Assembly (NCBI GenBank): GCA_043798915.1
Contig: JAZDOG010000068.1
Span: 498 to 64,497 of the forward strand
DNA length: 64,000 bases
DNA from: Pseudomonadota bacterium
Lineage (GTDB): Bacteria; UBA10199; 2-02-FULL-44-16; JAAZCA01
Reading direction: 5' to 3'
Notes under the pieces: model-generated
Told to the model about the DNA's origin: nothing
The model's input: the letters and a program-made list of their open reading frames with translations, nothing else
Database searches by the model: none
Shown here: positions 5,855 to 36,342 of the stretch, one piece after another
Layout of the letters: each line of letters opens with the position of its first letter
Position numbering within the stretch: position 1 is the stretch's first letter
Position numbers and translations under genes: made by a program

Positions 5855-6361
5855 ATGATATCCGCAATCAAAGGCAAATCACCCAACATAGATCCAAGCG
5901 CCTTTGTGGCCGGCAATGCCACGGTGCTTGGGGATGTCAGGATCGGAGCGGGCGCTGGGATATGGTTCGGGGCCGTCATCCGCGGCGATTCGAACTCGAT
6001 ATGCGTAGGTTCCAGGACAAATGTGCAGGATCTCTGCGTCCTCCACGTGGACGAGTTGAATCCGCTCAGGATAGGCGACGACGTCACGATAGGGCACCGC
6101 GCCATTCTTCACGGCTGCAGCGTTGGCGACAGGGTGCTCATCGGCATGGGCGCGATCATCATGAACGGTGCCACCATAGGTGACGACTCCATTGTCGGCG
6201 CGGGCGCGCTCGTCACCGAGGGCACAAAAGTTCTGCCGCGCTCACTCCTTATCGGCGTCCCGGCGAAGGTGAAGAGGGAGCTCTCGGATGGCGAGATCGC
6301 CGGCATCCTGCAGGCCGCAAAGCATTATGTGCAGAACGCGGCAGTATATAAGAAGTCTTAA
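5855..6361 (+). CDS. Gamma-class carbonic anhydrase family protein (left-handed beta-helix hexapeptide repeat).
   Basis: Hexapeptide repeats and VLHVDE...IGDDVTIGHRAILHGCSVGDRVLIGMGAI are typical of YrdA/PaaY gamma-CA-like proteins. Confidence 0.8.
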   Translation: MISAIKGKSPNIDPSAFVAGNATVLGDVRIGAGAGIWFGAVIRGDSNSICVGSRTNVQDLCVLHVDELNPLRIGDDVTIGHRAILHGCSVGDRVLIGMGAIIMNGATIGDDSIVGAGALVTEGTKVLPRSLLIGVPAKVKRELSDGEIAGILQAAKHYVQNAAVYKKS

Positions 6362-6362
6362 A

Positions 6363-6453
6363 CTCCCCTCCTTTGTAAGGAGGGGGTGGGGGAGGTAGAT
6401 CGTGGTCTATGCTTGATCTACCCTCCCTATCCCTCCCTTACAAAGGGAGGGGG
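6363..6453. repeat. Palindromic repeat element, copy A (intergenic, just upstream of tilS).
   Basis: Read directly: ctcccctcctttgtaaggagggggtgggggaggtagatc-gtggtctatgctt-gatctaccctccctatccctcccttacaaagggaggggg. Two terminal hairpins flank a central palindrome. Confidence 0.8.
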
Positions 6454-6464
6454 TTTGAAAAATC

Positions 6465-7463
6465 ATGCTGTTTCCCAAGTTCAAAAAATTCATGGCGGAT
6501 AACGACCTCATTCGAGAGGGCGATGGCGTCATCGTCGCGGTCTCCGGCGGCATCGACTCTATGGTCCTCCTCGATCTCTTCTGCCGTGTCGCGGGGCCGA
6601 TGAAGCTCTCCCTCAGGGCGGCGCATGTGAACCACATGCTCCGCGACAGGGCATCAGGCGAGGACGAGGCGCTGGTGCGCAAATTCTGCGGCAAGATGGG
6701 CATCCCCTGCGAAGTCCAGAGGCGCAGGCCTCCGGCAGGCAAAAACCTCCAGGATGCGGCCAGGAGAATTCGGTACGATTTTTTTAAAAGCAGCGCAGAA
6801 AAGGGGAGGGCGTTCTCGATAGCCACCGCCCATCATATGGACGATCAGGCGGAGACGATCCTCCTGCACCTGATTCGCGGCGCGGGGCTCGCAGGTCTCG
6901 CCGGCATGAGGCCGAAGGCGCGCATTGGAGCGCTGAAACTGGTGCGACCGCTCCTCTTTGCATCGAGGGCTGAGATCGAGCAATACGCGAAACAGAGACA
7001 CATCGAATACAACGACGATGCCACGAATGCGACAGTGAAATATGCCCGAAATTCGGTGCGCCATCGCCTGATCCCGCTCCTAAAGGAATTCAATCCGCGA
7101 ATAGTCGAAAACATCGCGGCGATAGGCGACAGGGCGGACGCCGACGAAAAGGCCCTGCGGCTGTTTGCTGAGGAATCGCTCGATCAGGCGCTGACCAGAA
7201 ACAGCCGCGATGAGATATGGCTCTCCCGCCAGGCCTGGCTGCCGCTGCCCCAGGCGGTCAGAGGCCGCATGCTTCGCGCCGCCTTCGAGCGCGCGAGCGG
7301 AAGCGCCAAGGATTTGAATGCCGACCAGCTGTTGCGGATGGATTCGATAGCGGCAGGGCCTCGGCCCTCGGGGTCGTATCGCCTCCCCGCGCCCTGGAAA
7401 TTTCATCGCGATGGCGACCTGATCGGAATCACCCGCAGCGCAAAAAAGTGTGACAGAAAGTGA
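6465..7463 (+). CDS. tilS: tRNA(Ile)-lysidine synthetase TilS.
   Basis: The N-terminal PP-loop SGGIDS (VAVSGGIDSMVLLDLF) is present. The 332-aa length fits a short TilS form. Confidence 0.75.
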   Translation: MLFPKFKKFMADNDLIREGDGVIVAVSGGIDSMVLLDLFCRVAGPMKLSLRAAHVNHMLRDRASGEDEALVRKFCGKMGIPCEVQRRRPPAGKNLQDAARRIRYDFFKSSAEKGRAFSIATAHHMDDQAETILLHLIRGAGLAGLAGMRPKARIGALKLVRPLLFASRAEIEQYAKQRHIEYNDDATNATVKYARNSVRHRLIPLLKEFNPRIVENIAAIGDRADADEKALRLFAEESLDQALTRNSRDEIWLSRQAWLPLPQAVRGRMLRAAFERASGSAKDLNADQLLRMDSIAAGPRPSGSYRLPAPWKFHRDGDLIGITRSAKKCDRK

Positions 7464-15283: not shown

Positions 15284-16834
15284 ATGAAACTTGTGACTTC
15301 AAAACAAATGCGCGGGCTCGATCGCGCCGCCATTGAAAAGCATGGGATCGCCTCGCTCGATCTCATGGAGCGCGCGGGCCGGGGCGTGGCGAAAGCTGTA
15401 GCCAGCCTCACGCCGCCGGAGAAAGGGACGGTCGCTATCATCGCCGGCCGCGGCAACAACGGCGGCGACGGGCTCGTTGCAGCGCGACATCTGATCTCGA
15501 TGGGATACGAAGTCGCCGTTTGGCTTCTGGCGGGGCCCTCCGACCTCTCGCCGGACGCCCGCGCGAACTGGGAGTTGCTCGCCCCGCTCACGACGCATCT
15601 GTTCACAATCGCGGATATCGCCGAATTCAATTCCAGATTGCCCCTCATCGAGCGATCGTGCCTGATCGTCGATGCGATCCTCGGCACCGGTCTCGACCGC
15701 GACGTCGCAGGGCTTCCTGCGGCCGCTATCGCAGCGATCAACGCCGCCGGCATTCCGGTCGTGTCGGTCGATATTCCGTCCGGGCTTTCGGCGGATACCG
15801 GAAAACCGCTTGGCGCCGCAGTCCGCGCCGCTGCGACGGTGACCTTCGGCCTGCCGAAGATGGGCCTTGTGGTCGGCGATGGGCCTGTTTTTTCGGGCTC
15901 AATCAAAGTCGTGGATATCGGGATACCGGGTGAGGAGACTGATCGCGTCGAATCTCTGATCGAGCTGATCGAGCCTTCGATGTTCGCGTCCCATTTCGGA
16001 AAGCGCGATCCCTCCGCGCACAAGGGGGCGTTCGGACACGTCGTGGTCTACTCAGGATCGCTGGGGCATCTTGGCGCGGGATATCTCGGGTGCCTGGCGG
16101 CGCTGCGCGCTGGATGCGGGCTCGTCACGTATTGCCTGCCGGAGAAGGCGTTCGTCCGGTTCGATGCGCGCTATCCGGAGGTTATGTGCGATCCGATTGC
16201 GGATGATGCCTCGGCGCATTTTCACCCCAAGGGTCTCGATGCCGCGCTTCGCGTTGCCGATGGAAAGTCGGTTGCGGCGATCGGCCCGGCGATCGGCACA
16301 GAAAAGTCGACGCGCGAATTTGTGAATTCATTCATCGGCAGGATTAAAATTCCGCTCGTCATAGATGCGGATGGACTCAACGTGCTCGATCTCTCTTCCC
16401 TCAGGGGACGCCGCGCGGCCACGATCCTCACCCCGCACCCCGGCGAGATGGGGAGGCTGTCAAAGGCCGCAACTGAGGATGTTCAGGCCGACAGAGTGGG
16501 GCACGCCACCCGTTTCGCAAAGGAACACGGCGTGACGCTCGTCCTCAAGGGGCGCGGGACTGTCGTCGCGAGCCCCGACGGGAGCGCCGCAATAAATCAT
16601 ACGGGCAATGCCGGGATGGCGACGGCTGGGATGGGGGACGCCCTCACTGGCATCGTTGCATCGTTTATCGCGCAGGGGATGGATGTGAAGACGGCCTGTG
16701 TCGCCGCCGTCTACATCCACGGCCTGGCCGGCGACATGGCCGCCGCCGAACACGGCGAGCGCGCGCTGATCACCTCGGATGTGATAGGCAAGCTGGGAAA
16801 GGCGATGAAAAAGATTTCCCCCTCCCCTTTGTAA
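15284..16834 (+). CDS. nnr: Bifunctional NAD(P)H-hydrate repair enzyme Nnr (YjeF_N epimerase plus C-terminal dehydratase).
   Basis: Present are the N-domain IAGRGNNGGDG and the C-domain carbohydrate-kinase fold. The last 6 codons and the TAA stop are supplied by repeat copy B. Confidence 0.85.
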   Translation: MKLVTSKQMRGLDRAAIEKHGIASLDLMERAGRGVAKAVASLTPPEKGTVAIIAGRGNNGGDGLVAARHLISMGYEVAVWLLAGPSDLSPDARANWELLAPLTTHLFTIADIAEFNSRLPLIERSCLIVDAILGTGLDRDVAGLPAAAIAAINAAGIPVVSVDIPSGLSADTGKPLGAAVRAAATVTFGLPKMGLVVGDGPVFSGSIKVVDIGIPGEETDRVESLIELIEPSMFASHFGKRDPSAHKGAFGHVVVYSGSLGHLGAGYLGCLAALRAGCGLVTYCLPEKAFVRFDARYPEVMCDPIADDASAHFHPKGLDAALRVADGKSVAAIGPAIGTEKSTREFVNSFIGRIKIPLVIDADGLNVLDLSSLRGRRAATILTPHPGEMGRLSKAATEDVQADRVGHATRFAKEHGVTLVLKGRGTVVASPDGSAAINHTGNAGMATAGMGDALTGIVASFIAQGMDVKTACVAAVYIHGLAGDMAAAEHGERALITSDVIGKLGKAMKKISPSPL

Positions 16835-16910
16835 GGGGAGGGTCAGGGTGGGGTAGATAGCTGATTCAGTGCTGATCTACCTCCCCCAGCCCCTCCTTAC
16901 AAAGGAGGGG
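16817..16910. repeat. Palindromic repeat element, copy B. It overlaps the 3' end of nnr and the RBS/start region of tsaE.
   Basis: Read directly: cccctcccctttgtaaggggagggtcagggtggggtagatagctgattcagtgctgatctacctcccccagcccctccttacaaaggaggggag. Confidence 0.8.
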
Positions 16911-16933
16911 AGTTGTGCAATCATCGATATAAC

Positions 16934-17353
16934 ATGGAATACACGACAAAATCTCCTGAAGAAACTTTTGAGCTGGCGCGAAAATTTGCAAAGCGCTTGA
17001 AGGCGGACGCCATCCTCGCCCTCACCGGAGAACTCGGCGCCGGAAAGACGAAGTTCGTGCAGGGGCTAGCGGCCGGCCTCGGCGTCCCCAAAAGCATATA
17101 TGTCCGCTCGCCGTCGTTCACGCTCATGAACGAATACGACGGGGGACGCCTGCCGCTCTATCATTTCGATTTTTATCGCCTGAACGAGCCCTCCGAGCTT
17201 GAGGATCTGGGGCTCGAGGAGTACTTCGAAGGCGGGGGCTTGAGCGTGGTCGAATGGGCAGACCGCTTTCCCGGCGCGCTGCCCCGTGACACGGTGCATA
17301 TTGAGTTCAGGATTGTGGATGATGATACAAGGGAGATTGAATTTGCAGGTTAG
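16934..17353 (+). CDS. tsaE: tRNA t6A biosynthesis protein TsaE (YjeE P-loop ATPase).
   Basis: Sequence shows ALTGELGAGKTKFVQGLA. The nnr-tsaE adjacency is conserved. An alternative GTG start lies at 16913. Confidence 0.8.
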   Translation: MEYTTKSPEETFELARKFAKRLKADAILALTGELGAGKTKFVQGLAAGLGVPKSIYVRSPSFTLMNEYDGGRLPLYHFDFYRLNEPSELEDLGLEEYFEGGGLSVVEWADRFPGALPRDTVHIEFRIVDDDTREIEFAG

Positions 17354-28597: not shown

Positions 28598-29539
28598 GTG
28601 AACGGACGATCGACAGATAGCTCCAGGAGGAGGCTTCCTGAATGGCTCAAGAAACGGGCTGTTCCGGGTGAAGCTATCCACGCGATCAAGCGCGGCCTGC
28701 GCGACAGTGCGCTCCACACCGTCTGCGAAGAGGCCCGCTGTCCCAACCTCGGCGAATGTTTCTCACGCGGCACCGCGACGATGATGATCATGGGCGATAC
28801 CTGCACTCGCCGCTGCGGCTTCTGTGCGGTGAAGGGCGGCGTTCCTGGGCCGCTCGATGCCGGAGAGCCCTCGCGCGTGGCCCTGCAGGTCAAGGTGATG
28901 AAACTCAAGCATGCCGTGGTAACCTCCGTCACGCGCGACGACCTCCCGGATGGCGGCGGCGCGCATTTTGCGCAGACGATAGCCGAGATAAGAAGGCTCT
29001 GCCCCGAAATCACGATCGAGGTCCTGACGCCCGACTTCTGCGGCAGCGAAGAGGCGATAGGGACGGTCTGCAGCGCAGCTCCGGATATATTCAACCACAA
29101 CATCGAGACGGTCGAGCGGCTGACGCCCGTCGTGCGCGATCGCAGGGCAAGTTATCGACGGTCGCTTGATGTATTGAGGATAGCAGCCAAAACCCTCCCC
29201 TTTGTAAGGGGAGGGAAGGGTGGGGTAGATCATGATCTACCTCCCCTAACCCCTCCTTACAAAGGAGGGGGACTAATCAAGTCAGGGCTGATGGTGGGCC
29301 TGGGCGAGACCTGCAATGAAGTGGCCGGCGCCCTCCTGGACCTCAAAGAAGCGGGCTGCGACATCGTGACGATCGGCCAATACCTGCGCCCATCGAAGGA
29401 TGCGCTGCCGGTGGTCAGCTATGTTGAACCTTCGACCTTCGAAAAGTATAGAGAAAATGCTTTAAATATCGGATTTAAGACTGTGTTTTCAGGCCCTTTT
29501 ATTCGTAGTTCATATCTGGCCGATAAGGCGCTACTTTAA
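28598..29539 (+). CDS. lipA: Lipoyl synthase.
   Basis: Sequence shows LHTVCEEARCPNLGEC, then CTRRCGFCAV (radical SAM), then ...SGLMVGLGET. It carries a 27-codon in-frame insertion from repeat copy C. GTG start. Confidence 0.9.
   Translation: MNGRSTDSSRRRLPEWLKKRAVPGEAIHAIKRGLRDSALHTVCEEARCPNLGECFSRGTATMMIMGDTCTRRCGFCAVKGGVPGPLDAGEPSRVALQVKVMKLKHAVVTSVTRDDLPDGGGAHFAQTIAEIRRLCPEITIEVLTPDFCGSEEAIGTVCSAAPDIFNHNIETVERLTPVVRDRRASYRRSLDVLRIAAKTLPFVRGGKGGVDHDLPPLTPPYKGGGLIKSGLMVGLGETCNEVAGALLDLKEAGCDIVTIGQYLRPSKDALPVVSYVEPSTFEKYRENALNIGFKTVFSGPFIRSSYLADKALL
29193..29271. repeat. Palindromic repeat element, copy C, inserted in frame inside lipA.
   Basis: Read directly: ccctcccctttgtaaggggagggaagggtggggtagatcatgatctacctcccctaacccctccttacaaaggaggggg. 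It is translated as TLPFVRGGKGGVDHDLPPLTPPYKGGG. Confidence 0.85.
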
Positions 29540-33843: not shown

Positions 33844-36342
33844 ATGCCTGAACGACACTACAACCCTGCCGAAATCGAATCCAAGTGGCAGAAGCACTGG
33901 GAGAAGAAGGGGCTCTTCAAGGTGAAGGAGGTCCCAGGGCAGAAGAAGTATTACCTCCTCGAGATGCTCCCGTACCCCTCCGGGCGGCTTCACATGGGGC
34001 ACGTGCGCAACTACACGATAGGCGACGTCGCGACGCGCTGCCGCATGATGCAGGGCTTCAAGGTGCTGCACCCAATGGGCTGGGATGCCTTCGGCATGCC
34101 CGCCGAGAACGCCGCGATCAAGGAGGGCGTCCACCCCGCCAAGTGGACGAAGTCGAACATCGATTACATGCGCGGGCAGTTCAAGCGCCTCGGATGCTCC
34201 TATGACTGGGAGCGCGAATTCGCCACGTGCGACCCCGATTACTACCGATGGGACCAGCTGATATTCGTGCGGATGTTCGAGAAGGGATGGGCCTACAAGA
34301 AGAGCTCCCAGATCAACTGGTGCCCGACATGCCAGACGGTGCTGGCCAACGAGCAGGCCGAGGGAGGCGTCTGCTGGCGCTGCGACTCGGGGGTGGTGGG
34401 CAAACCGATGTCGCAATGGTTCTTCAGGATCACCGATTACGCCGAGGAGCTCCTCCGCGACATCGACGAAAAGCTCACGGGCTGGCCGGAGCGCGTCCGC
34501 ATCATGCAGCGCGAGTGGATCGGAAAGAGCGTGGGCGCCTTGATCAGATTTCCCCTCCTTTGTAAGGAGGGGAAAGGGGAGGTAGACCATGATCTACCCC
34601 ACCCTAACCCTCCCCTTACAAAGGGGAGGGAATTTATCGAGGTCTTCACGACGCGCCCGGACACGATCTTCGGCGTCACCTTCATGAGCATCGCGTGCGA
34701 GCACCCGCTCGTTAAGGAATTCGTGAAAGGGACCGGCCAGGAGAGGGCGGTCGCGGCGTTTGCCGAGAAGAGCTCCCACATCGACCACGAGGCCAGGCTC
34801 GCAAACACATATGAGAAGGACGGCGTCTTCACCGGCGCATATTGCATAAACCCGATGACGGGCGCGCGCGTGCCGATCTACGCCGCCAACTTCGTCCTCA
34901 TGGACTACGGCACGGGTGCTGTGATGGCGGTGCCGGCGCACGACCAGCGCGATTTTGAATTCGCGAAAAAATACAAGCTCCCTGTCAAGGTCGTGATCCA
35001 GCCGGAAGGGGAGAAGCTCGATGCAAGAGCGATGGCTGAAGCCTGGGAGGGACCGGGGACGCTCGTCGATTCGGGCGAGTTCACCGGAATGAACAGCGAG
35101 GCCGCGATCCGCGCCATCTCGGAGCACTTTGCGAAGAAAAAGATCGGCGGGCCGGCGGTCACGTATCGTCTGAAGGACTGGTGCATCTCGCGTCAGCGCT
35201 ACTGGGGCGCACCCATCCCCATCATCTATTGCGACTCATGCGGGACAGTGCCTGTCCCGGATAAGGACCTGCCCGTTGTCCTTCCTCATGACGTGGAGTT
35301 CACCGGCGAGGGCGGCTCGCCGATAGCCAAACTCGAGTCATTCGTGGACACCAAATGCCCCAGGTGCAAGGGAAAGGCGCGGCGCGAGACCGACACGATG
35401 GACACGTTCGTCGAGTCGTCGTGGTACATGCTGCGCTATGCATGCCCCAAATACGACAAGGGGCCTGTCGATCCGAAGATGATCGAGTACTGGCTTCCGG
35501 TCGATCAGTACATCGGCGGGATCGAACATGCCGTCGGGCATCTCATCTACTGCCGCTATTTCACCAAGGTGATGCGCGACTTGGGGATGCTCAAGCTCGA
35601 CGAGCCGGTGAAGAACCTGATGACGCAGGGGATGGTCTACAAGGACGGCGCCAAGATGAGCAAGTCGAAGGGGAACGTCGTCGACCCTGACGACATGATC
35701 GCCAAGTTCGGCGCCGACACCGTGAGGCTCTTTTCGCTCTTCGCCGCGCCGCCTGAGAAAGACCTCGAGTGGAGCGAGCGAGGGGTGGAAGGGGCGCACC
35801 GCTTCCTCATCCGCGTATGGCGCATCGTCTCGGCGTGGAAAGAGGGAGGAGGCGGAAAGGGTGCAAAGGCGACAGAAGATATCGGGCAGTGGCGAAACCG
35901 CACGATCCAGCGCGTCACCGAGGATGTAGACCGTTACCATTTCAACACCGCGATCGCTGCGGTGATGGAGTACGTCAACTTCCTCTACGGCCTCAAGGTG
36001 CAGGATATCCCTGCGGAGGCGATCGAGACGCTCATACTCCTCGTCTCCCCGTTTGCGCCGCACGCGGCGGAGGAACTCTGGGAGCTCTTGGGGCATTCGA
36101 AGTCGACCCTCCACGAGCCGTGGCCGGCGTTCGATCCTGCGAAGGCGCAGGGCTACACGGTGACCTACATCGTGCAGGTTGGCGGCAAGATGCGAGACAA
36201 GCTCGATCTCCCCATCGATATGCCCGAGGAGGACGTGAAGGCCGCGGCCCTAGCCTCGGCGAAAGTTGCTGCGCATCTCGAAGGCAAGGCGCCCCAAAAG
36301 GTGATCTTCGTCCCGAAGAGGCTCGTGAATATTGTGGTGTGA
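33844..36342 (+). CDS. leuS: Leucyl-tRNA synthetase.
   Basis: Present are [12 protein letters not shown] (start of the CP1 editing domain) and KMSKS. It carries a ~27-codon in-frame insertion from repeat copy D just before VFTTRPDT. Confidence 0.95.
34551..34629. repeat. Palindromic repeat element, copy D, inserted in frame inside leuS.
   Basis: Read directly: cccctcctttgtaaggaggggaaaggggaggtagaccatgatctaccccaccctaaccctccccttacaaaggggaggg. It is translated as [26 protein letters not shown]. Confidence 0.85.

Follow-up and report, generated by a model that had tools for sequence, protein, structure and literature searches.

A palindromic repeat that supplies the end of nnr is probably a tolerated insertion and not the ribosome-binding site of tsaE

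INTRODUCTION

REPINs and BIMEs are inverted doublets of REP sequences, and are thought to be mobilised by RAYT transposases (PMC3116915, PMC6006769). A REP is itself defined by a hairpin whose loop measures 2-5 nucleotides (nt), preceded on its 5' side, at a distance of 0-2 nt, by a GT[AG]G motif (PMC6006769). It is also well documented that the reading frames of small repeats, such as the Rickettsia palindromic elements (RPEs), ERIC, BOX/RUP, BRE and QMITE1, can fuse with genes, either extending their 3' ends or being inserted internally (PMC3184786, section 15; PMC10969869), and Neisseria REP2 and Borrelia IR are repeats that carry a promoter, a ribosome-binding site (RBS) and an ATG (PMC3184786). 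The present study concerns a repeat whose architecture is closest to that of the REPINs and BIMEs. One copy of it, copy B, lies between nnr and tsaE in a 64,000-nt stretch of contig JAZDOG010000068.1, assigned to a Pseudomonadota bacterium; this whole stretch is referred to below as the window.

An earlier note on this DNA proposed that copy B had been exapted, both as the terminus of nnr and as the translation-initiation region of tsaE. Here we show that copy B does end the nnr reading frame, and that its SD-like (Shine-Dalgarno-like) arm is poorly placed and predicted to be inaccessible for initiation of tsaE. Our preferred reading, to which we give a probability of about 0.7, is that copy B is a small mobile palindromic repeat of the REPIN or MITE (miniature inverted-repeat transposable element) type, which landed on or next to the nnr stop codon and was tolerated there, serving neither as an RBS nor as a terminator. 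A repeat that caps nnr is an already known kind of event; the copies found in-frame in essential enzymes are more notable.

RESULTS

Copy B ends the nnr reading frame

The features of nnr and copy B are as follows (aa, amino acids).

15284..16834, + strand: nnr, bifunctional NAD(P)H-hydrate repair enzyme, 516 aa, with YjeF_N (PF03853) and Carb_kinase (PF01256) domains
16832..16834, + strand: nnr stop codon TAA, at the edge between the loop and the 3' arm of the copy B left hairpin
16818..16912, + strand: palindromic repeat copy B, located between nnr and tsaE, with its core at 16820-16910
16820..16842, + strand: left terminal hairpin of copy B, CCCTCCCC (16820-16827), TTTGTAA (16828-16834) and GGGGAGGG (16835-16842), encoding P-S-P-L and the nnr stop; local fold -19.1 kcal/mol
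16846..16887, + strand: inner palindrome of copy B, conserved boxes GGGTGGGGTAGAT and GATCTACCTCCCCC flanking a variable core; local fold -22.2 kcal/mol
16890..16910, + strand: right terminal hairpin of copy B, CCCCTCC (16890-16896), TTACAAA (16897-16903) and GGAGGGG (16904-16910); local fold -16.1 kcal/mol

Copy B is a nested palindrome, and its standing as a repeat copy that lies between nnr and tsaE and ends nnr is confirmed. The 21-nt pattern of its terminal hairpins occurs eight times in the window (two hairpins in each of four copies), against 0.00 occurrences expected from 100 shuffles. As RNA, the region is predicted to fold at -60.9 kcal/mol (z = -5.1), and copy B at -60.7 kcal/mol (z = -6.3), with two near-isoenergetic structures, one of three local hairpins (-57.4 kcal/mol) and one of a single long hairpin (-60.7 kcal/mol). 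An Rfam search of the whole window returned no family at the gathering score, and a permissive scan gave only sub-threshold look-alikes of miRNA precursors, as is expected of any long hairpin.

The nnr product of the window is 100% identical, and equal in length at 516 aa, to the protein deposited at NCBI for this metagenome-assembled genome (MAG; protein P0001). The gene ends ...AAG ATT TCC CCC TCC CCT TTG TAA, in which the repeat supplies the last five codons (SPSPL), the first of them straddling the repeat boundary, together with the stop. The earlier note had counted six repeat-derived codons, ISPSPL, before the TAA; SPSPL and the stop do come from the repeat, but the Ile codon (16814-16816) is native flank and fits the conserved ...K-x-I of Nnr relatives. 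The same note was right in placing the TAA within the TTTGTAA hairpin. Deleting 16818-16910 in silico gives ...AAG ATT TAG, that is, a protein ending ...AMKKI, which is a reconstruction and not an observed allele. The frame that nnr uses through copy B yields the shortest tail among the three frames. Over 180 hairpins of the family this stop-giving frame was used 15 times, against 11 and 15 for the other two, and is thus not enriched.

The Nnr tail tracks the repeat

Past the conserved ...K-x-I, the C-termini of Nnr relatives vary in both length and sequence. We surveyed 116 full-length relatives, and read the DNA behind all six that, the window apart, end in S[SP]PL or FPSP (loci are designated L plus a number). 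A TTTGTAA hairpin, in one orientation or the other, lies at the end of nnr in L118, L217, L121, L119 and L216, all with S[SP]PL tails, so that with the window all six S[SP]PL-tailed genes have the hairpin in their DNA. In the sixth relative, L120, a different G/C-rich palindromic repeat gives the tail FPSP and a TGA stop. This second family (CCCCTCACCCTGA CCCTCTCCC-loop-GGGAGAGGG ... GGGTGAGGGTGGGGGTAG) was seen at the nnr-tsaE junction of L120 (1590-1622) and of L130 (about 195-290).

The element-free relatives L122-L127 serve as the counter-check, and none of the six has an S[SP]PL tail. Their proteins end, for example, ...AIKEIER, ...AMKRISKDA, ...AINSINK or ...AMKQIT. In L122, L123 and L124, nnr and tsaE overlap by 4 nt through ATGA or GTGA, and L126 has an ATGA overlap; in L127, nnr extends 17 nt into tsaE, and in L125 it ends at a TAG before the contig end. 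Orthologues that end in the same residues without carrying the element, which would have spoken against a repeat origin of the tail, were therefore not found in this set.

In a neighbour-joining tree the tailed Nnr proteins stand at no fewer than five (at least 5) separate tips, each with an untailed sister, and among 80 metagenome tsaE loci the element occurs at tsaE only in the L118 population. The two results together indicate that the insertions were independent events. One ancestral insertion common to the window and L118 is ruled out, as closer relatives lack the repeat and have overlapping nnr and tsaE. Recurrent hits on the nnr-tsaE junction are to be expected in genomes where almost all junctions have a copy, as with the six copies in 7.5 kb of L118. 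We infer that the repeat-encoded tail was tolerated and not recruited: the C-terminus is naturally variable, the event recurred independently, another repeat family does the same in L120, and the tail in the window is the shortest available. The proposal that the element was exapted as a gene terminus is therefore not supported.

The G-rich arm is a poor candidate for the RBS of tsaE

Two starts have to be considered for tsaE.

16913..16915, + strand: TTG start of tsaE in the NCBI annotation (146-aa product), 4 nt past GGAGG
16934..17353, + strand: tsaE read from ATG, the start that fits orthologue N-termini

The sequence AAGGAGGGGAG (16902-16912) stands directly upstream of the tsaE open reading frame (ORF). 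Its SD-like GGAGG (16904-16908), in the 3' arm of the right hairpin, is separated by 4 nt from the TTG and by 25 nt from the ATG. If the arm worked as the SD of tsaE, initiation would take place at TTG 16913, and the repeat would have replaced an ancestral coupling of the two genes by ATGA overlap. Several observations favour this view. NCBI does annotate the TTG start, and holds the 146-aa form on record and not the 139-aa form; GGAGG precedes that codon by 4 nt, and no SD stands before ATG 16934; in L118 and L216 the tsaE ATG lies 9 nt past the G-rich arm; the element-free relatives depend on overlap, which would make a replacement useful; and repeats that carry an RBS are known, as in Neisseria REP2 (PMC3184786).

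The N-terminus of the protein points the other way. Read from ATG 16934, TsaE begins MEYTTKSPEET, against VKHKTTSPEET, MKHTTRSPEET and MNKTITDSPEET in orthologues, and so has the same 6-7 residue lead as seven relatives in which the overlap of the genes, or their context, settles where the protein starts. A TTG start would add a 7-residue extension that is seen in none of the seven (0/7). The 21-nt spacer from 16913 to 16933 has a GC content of 33%, as is typical of non-coding DNA, compared with 59% for the window. A spacing of 4 nt is, moreover, short. An SD for tsaE would be of the GGAGG type, accessible and about 5-10 nt from the start, and the copy B arm offers none at that distance from either codon.

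Accessibility also appears to be low. In the predicted RNA ensemble, GGAGG is unpaired with a probability of only 0.03, compared with 0.70 for the SD of lpdA, and it is paired in both of the near-isoenergetic folds. With the left arm held open, as by a ribosome on the nnr TAA, the probability falls to 0.0001, because the freed right arm folds on itself. Translational coupling of nnr to tsaE through the long hairpin was accordingly rejected, as the modelled ribosome makes GGAGG less accessible, not more. Nor does an SD-like run beside a gene need a special explanation, as the palindromic design puts an outward G-rich arm at both ends of every copy, and a gene-adjacent SD-like run follows from it. 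An SD is also absent before nnr and pdxJ in the window.

We conclude, from the sequence and from modelled folds, that copy B is most likely not the RBS of tsaE, and that translation of tsaE most likely begins at its own ATG 16934 and owes nothing to the repeat, since GGAGG is too distant and would be locked in a stable helix. The TTG 16913 of the NCBI record is probably a mis-annotated start, drawn by the GGAGG of the repeat. The claim that the right arm supplies the tsaE RBS could survive only if TTG 16913 were the true start, and we consider it unlikely.

The sequence of the right stem, CCUCCUU paired with AAGGAGG (16874-16910 and all other copies), is that of an anti-SD:SD duplex, the SD-like arm pairing with an anti-SD-like one. 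The 16S rRNA 3' end reads GGAUCACCUCCUUA, which GATCTACCTCC resembles; this may be a coincidence.

Copy B is not an intrinsic terminator

An intercistronic terminator or attenuator had also been suggested. An intrinsic terminator consists of a G+C-rich stem and a following U run, and none was found on the + strand between 16500 and 17200. Neither stem is followed by a T-run, and the 3' flank of the repeat is A-rich throughout the family, so this suggestion is not supported. A promoter scan around the nnr-tsaE junction found none.

A different possibility is that the hairpin at the stop codon has been selected as an RNA-level regulator, which would tune nnr and tsaE through slow termination, a block to 3'-5' decay or cutting by a double-strand RNase. 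The structure is indeed very stable (-60.7 kcal/mol, z = -6.3), it encloses the nnr stop codon, and the junction is repeatedly occupied in several lineages. There are also precedents: in E. coli an upstream gene is translated less when a REP lies less than 16 nt from its stop codon, according to work cited in PMC12306157, and Correia elements are bound by RNase III and either cleaved or protected by it (PMC2649163). On the other side, the absence of a U-tract leaves no intrinsic terminator, the same repeat lies within the coding sequences of LipA, LeuS and LpdA, where such a role would be senseless, and, of the closest relatives, the six that were read lack a structure of this kind, most of them having overlapping nnr and tsaE. 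Recurrence at the junction is, moreover, expected by chance where six copies occur in 7.5 kb, as in L118. Selection for a regulatory role thus seems rather improbable. By analogy with the cases just cited, effects on expression are plausible as side-effects of a stable structure at a stop codon, such as slower termination of nnr, a barrier to exonucleases or a site for a double-strand RNase.

Two other copies in the window lie in-frame in essential enzymes

The window holds four copies of 77-95 nt. Besides copy B these are:

6365..6451, - strand: copy A, intergenic, in the orientation opposite to copy B
29193..29270, + strand: copy C, 78 nt, in-frame in lipoyl synthase LipA (28598-29539), encoding ...LPFVRGGKGGVDHDLPPLTPPYKGG...
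34552..34630, - strand: copy D, 79 nt, inverted relative to copies B and C, in-frame in leucyl-tRNA synthetase LeuS just before TTRPDT, encoding 26 residues

Copy A is thus intergenic, copy B straddles the end of a gene, and copies C and D are intragenic; in the wider sample of the family most copies stand at gene junctions. In minimal copies exactly one frame in three is open on each strand, and this is the frame used by LipA and LeuS. NCBI annotates both proteins as intact, LipA with 313 aa and LeuS with the repeat segment included. Compared with solved LipA structures, the window protein has an insertion of 20-26 residues (26 relative to the M. tuberculosis LipA, 5exi). The copy D segment is missing in 60 LeuS relatives, and in an AlphaFold model it forms a loop, predicted with low confidence, that links two strands in a region whose fold is otherwise confident. 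It adjoins the TTRPDT motif of the LeuS editing domain.

The possibility that the copies are mis-joins in a metagenome-assembled contig, which the origin of the window from a MAG, the tendency of short repeats to confuse assemblers and an apparent rearrangement of L119 might suggest, can hardly be right, as long essential ORFs run through copies C and D with no loss of frame, the junction of the L118 type is identical in independent assemblies and samples (L118, L135, L136 and L217), and the genes on either side of copy B follow the conserved operon order pdxJ-acpS-nnr-tsaE-lpdA.

What the outer arms encode resembles the residues at equivalent positions of element-free orthologues, namely FPL... 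and ...GRE in LeuS (34549-34640) and K-x-x-P-x-V in LipA (29189-29280). The net gain of LeuS is about 20 residues, less than a 79-nt repeat predicts. The likeness of arm and native residues may be a coincidence, or may reflect insertion plus a small deletion, or a preference for arm-like targets.

Copy A begins 3 nt past the stop codon (TAA) of a gene for a hexapeptide-repeat protein, and its G-rich arm ends 13 nt short of the next ATG, that of a tilS-like gene. At this second junction (6359-6467) the arm is the only SD-like motif before the ATG.

Two copies were also read in L118 (5877-5985 and 6534-6640), one of them in-frame in lpdA. In both, the loop of the right hairpin is interrupted between TTA and CAAA by a small palindrome of another kind (TCCGCCAGAGGCGGA TCCGCCTTTGGCGGA). 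L119 and L121 diverge immediately past TTTGTAA. To judge from these sequences, the A/T hairpin loop seems to attract further insertions.

The repeat family

The 21-nt hairpin pattern was scanned for in one genome per species (596 Gb), and at least 117 stretches matched. At uniform composition about 17 single matches are expected by chance in 596 Gb, so that isolated matches in odd phyla count for little, while paired matches do count. Among the matches listed, most come from Nitrospirales or Nitrospira MAGs, and others are labelled Deltaproteobacteria, Pseudomonadota, Planctomycetota, Acidobacteriota or candidate phyla. Complete Nitrospirales chromosomes, such as OZ245029.1 and OY820905.2, also gave matches.

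Thirty-five distinct complete elements were read, and all follow one plan: a CCTCCCC hairpin accompanied by GG(T/A)GGGGTAG, a variable core of 6-150 nt, and a CCCCTCC hairpin accompanied by GGGGAGGTAG. Lengths range from 70 to 200 nt, with high G+C. The ends, of about 35 nt, form terminal inverted repeats with consistent small differences, and the two ends differ in 31 of the 35 elements. Of 180 hairpins, taken over six different stem sequences, 168 have stems of perfect complementarity, which indicates that the local hairpins are kept by compensatory changes. On average, 13.9 of 14 positions form Watson-Crick pairs in the local hairpins, against 10.2 of 14 between the long-range arms.

The repeat is small and non-coding; it carries no transposase gene, and two of its three frames are closed in minimal copies. 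Target-site duplications were absent from 28 of 32 complete elements, the other four sharing a single base, and the flanking DNA is rich in T to the left and in A to the right. In L118 a stretch of 7.5 kb contains six nearly identical copies, the one in lpdA included, which indicates recent proliferation there. A scan for RAYT motifs in all ORFs of the 117 loci and the window found two RAYT-like ORFs (L033 and L081), neither flanked by the repeat. In L016 two ends stand 1.9 kb apart, the only widely spaced pair examined, and were considered as an autonomous element; they enclose ordinary host genes, and the candidate was dropped. A suspected tRNA array interleaved with repeats in L010 was likewise abandoned, as ARAGORN finds no tRNA there. 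Viral contigs contained ten single hairpins and no complete element, and thus provide no evidence of carriage by phages.

The CCCCTCC-TTTGTAA-GGAGGGG hairpin also occurs as a module of another composite repeat (GGAGGGGTGGCAGCCGCTTCGGCTGACGGGGTGG), in L035, L048, L068 and L077 (Acidobacteriota) and in the viral contigs L208, L209 and L214. This suggests that the hairpin is a recognition unit common to several element types. A census of repeat-encoded peptides in protein databases gave one weak match to a 41-aa query; when 30 aa were searched exhaustively with HMMER, the result was three weak, multi-stretch matches resembling G/P-rich proteins. Diagnostic 14-17-mers of the repeat were found in none of 8 million full texts, and the family is apparently undescribed.

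Comparison with described repeats

Like REPINs and BIMEs, the repeat is a short G+C-rich palindrome, arranged as an inverted doublet round a variable spacer, and the whole element can be folded into one hairpin (PMC3116915, PMC6006769). The compensatory stems, the lack of target-site duplication and the many dispersed copies are further likenesses, and the two slightly different units recall the Y and Z REPs of E. coli BIMEs. The differences are as follows. No GT[AG]G stands 5' of the terminal hairpins; a GTAG is found 9-10 nt from them in the 3' direction, and their loop is nominally of 7 nt. The inner palindrome GGTAGATC..GATCTACC of minimal copies does have a GTGG directly before it. REPs are predominantly extragenic; two of the four window copies are intragenic, and the two RAYT-like ORFs of the 117 loci have no repeat beside them.

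RPEs are found in-frame in unrelated housekeeping genes, where they add a peptide and leave the ORF intact (PMC10969869), just as the present repeat does in LipA, LeuS and the LpdA of L118. However, RPEs measure about 100-150 bp and are confined to Rickettsia, whereas this repeat, compared with them by description and not by sequence, is of 70-200 nt and high G+C, and occurs in environmental MAGs of Nitrospirales and of several other phyla. ERIC, BOX/RUP, BRE, Correia and Coxiella QMITE1 elements resemble it in being small and non-autonomous, with frames that fuse with host ORFs, and some of them extend the 3' ends of genes as copy B does with nnr (PMC3184786; PMC10969869). Classical MITEs differ in having target-site duplications and a related insertion sequence, neither of which was found here (28 of 32 elements lack a duplication, and the L016 pair is the only candidate for the latter). 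Like Neisseria REP2 and Borrelia IR (PMC3184786), the repeat can lie directly upstream of genes with an SD-like sequence, but those elements provide a start codon together with an RBS that is accessible, while here GGAGG sits in a perfect hairpin, is predicted to be inaccessible and comes with no start codon.

DISCUSSION

The course of events that we favour would be as follows. A non-coding mobile repeat, with two different hairpin ends round a variable core, would have inserted once at the 3' end of nnr, between the T and the AG of ...AAG ATT TAG, in a gene that natively ended ...AMKKI. The nnr frame, as seen in the sequence, is now extended by SPSPL, the five codons read from the repeat, and terminates with the TAA of the first hairpin. 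Insertions in the frame with the shortest tail would be those that survive, and tsaE would have been displaced to about 100 nt downstream of the nnr stop. The repeat is best explained as selfish, because copies also lie in-frame in LipA, LeuS and, in L118, LpdA.

Several points weigh against this interpretation. The start chosen by the NCBI pipeline, TTG 16913, directly follows GGAGGGGAG, in which case the repeat arm would be its SD. Elsewhere in the family (the tsaE and pdxJ junctions of L118, L216, L075 and L011) the next ATG lies 8-13 nt past a G-rich arm that is the sole SD-like motif, and in those genomes the repeat may donate an RBS. Folding predictions ignore the helicase activity of the ribosome and RNA-binding proteins. 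Occupation of the nnr-tsaE junction in several lineages could reflect selection and not just a hot spot. Finally, none of the empty-site alleles found exceeds 72% protein identity, and the precise site of insertion is deduced from the reconstruction; no transposase partner was found either, and mobility is deduced from the distribution and form of the copies.

A broader proposal, which we put forward only tentatively and regard as possible but doubtful, is that this is a cross-phylum repeat family built to be nearly harmless. Each strand would keep one open frame, with in-frame copies adding a floppy loop to essential enzymes in the manner of RPEs in Rickettsia, the SD-like arm would be neutralised by pairing with the anti-SD-like one, and movement without target-site duplication would depend on a hairpin-recognising enzyme, possibly guided to arm-like sites.

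If copy B is a tolerated mobile repeat, then the five C-terminal residues of Nnr and the TTG annotated as the start of TsaE would be by-products of the repeat, and not conserved features to be read as such. The repeat is common in Nitrospirales MAGs and lies in-frame in essential enzymes, a phenomenon documented mainly for Rickettsia. It provides, in LeuS, LipA and LpdA, a natural series of inserted loops, and a test case for the choice of site by a repeat without target-site duplication. Should the idea of a nearly harmless cross-phylum family prove true, the repeat would remodel both proteins and operon junctions of free-living bacteria in an RPE-like way.

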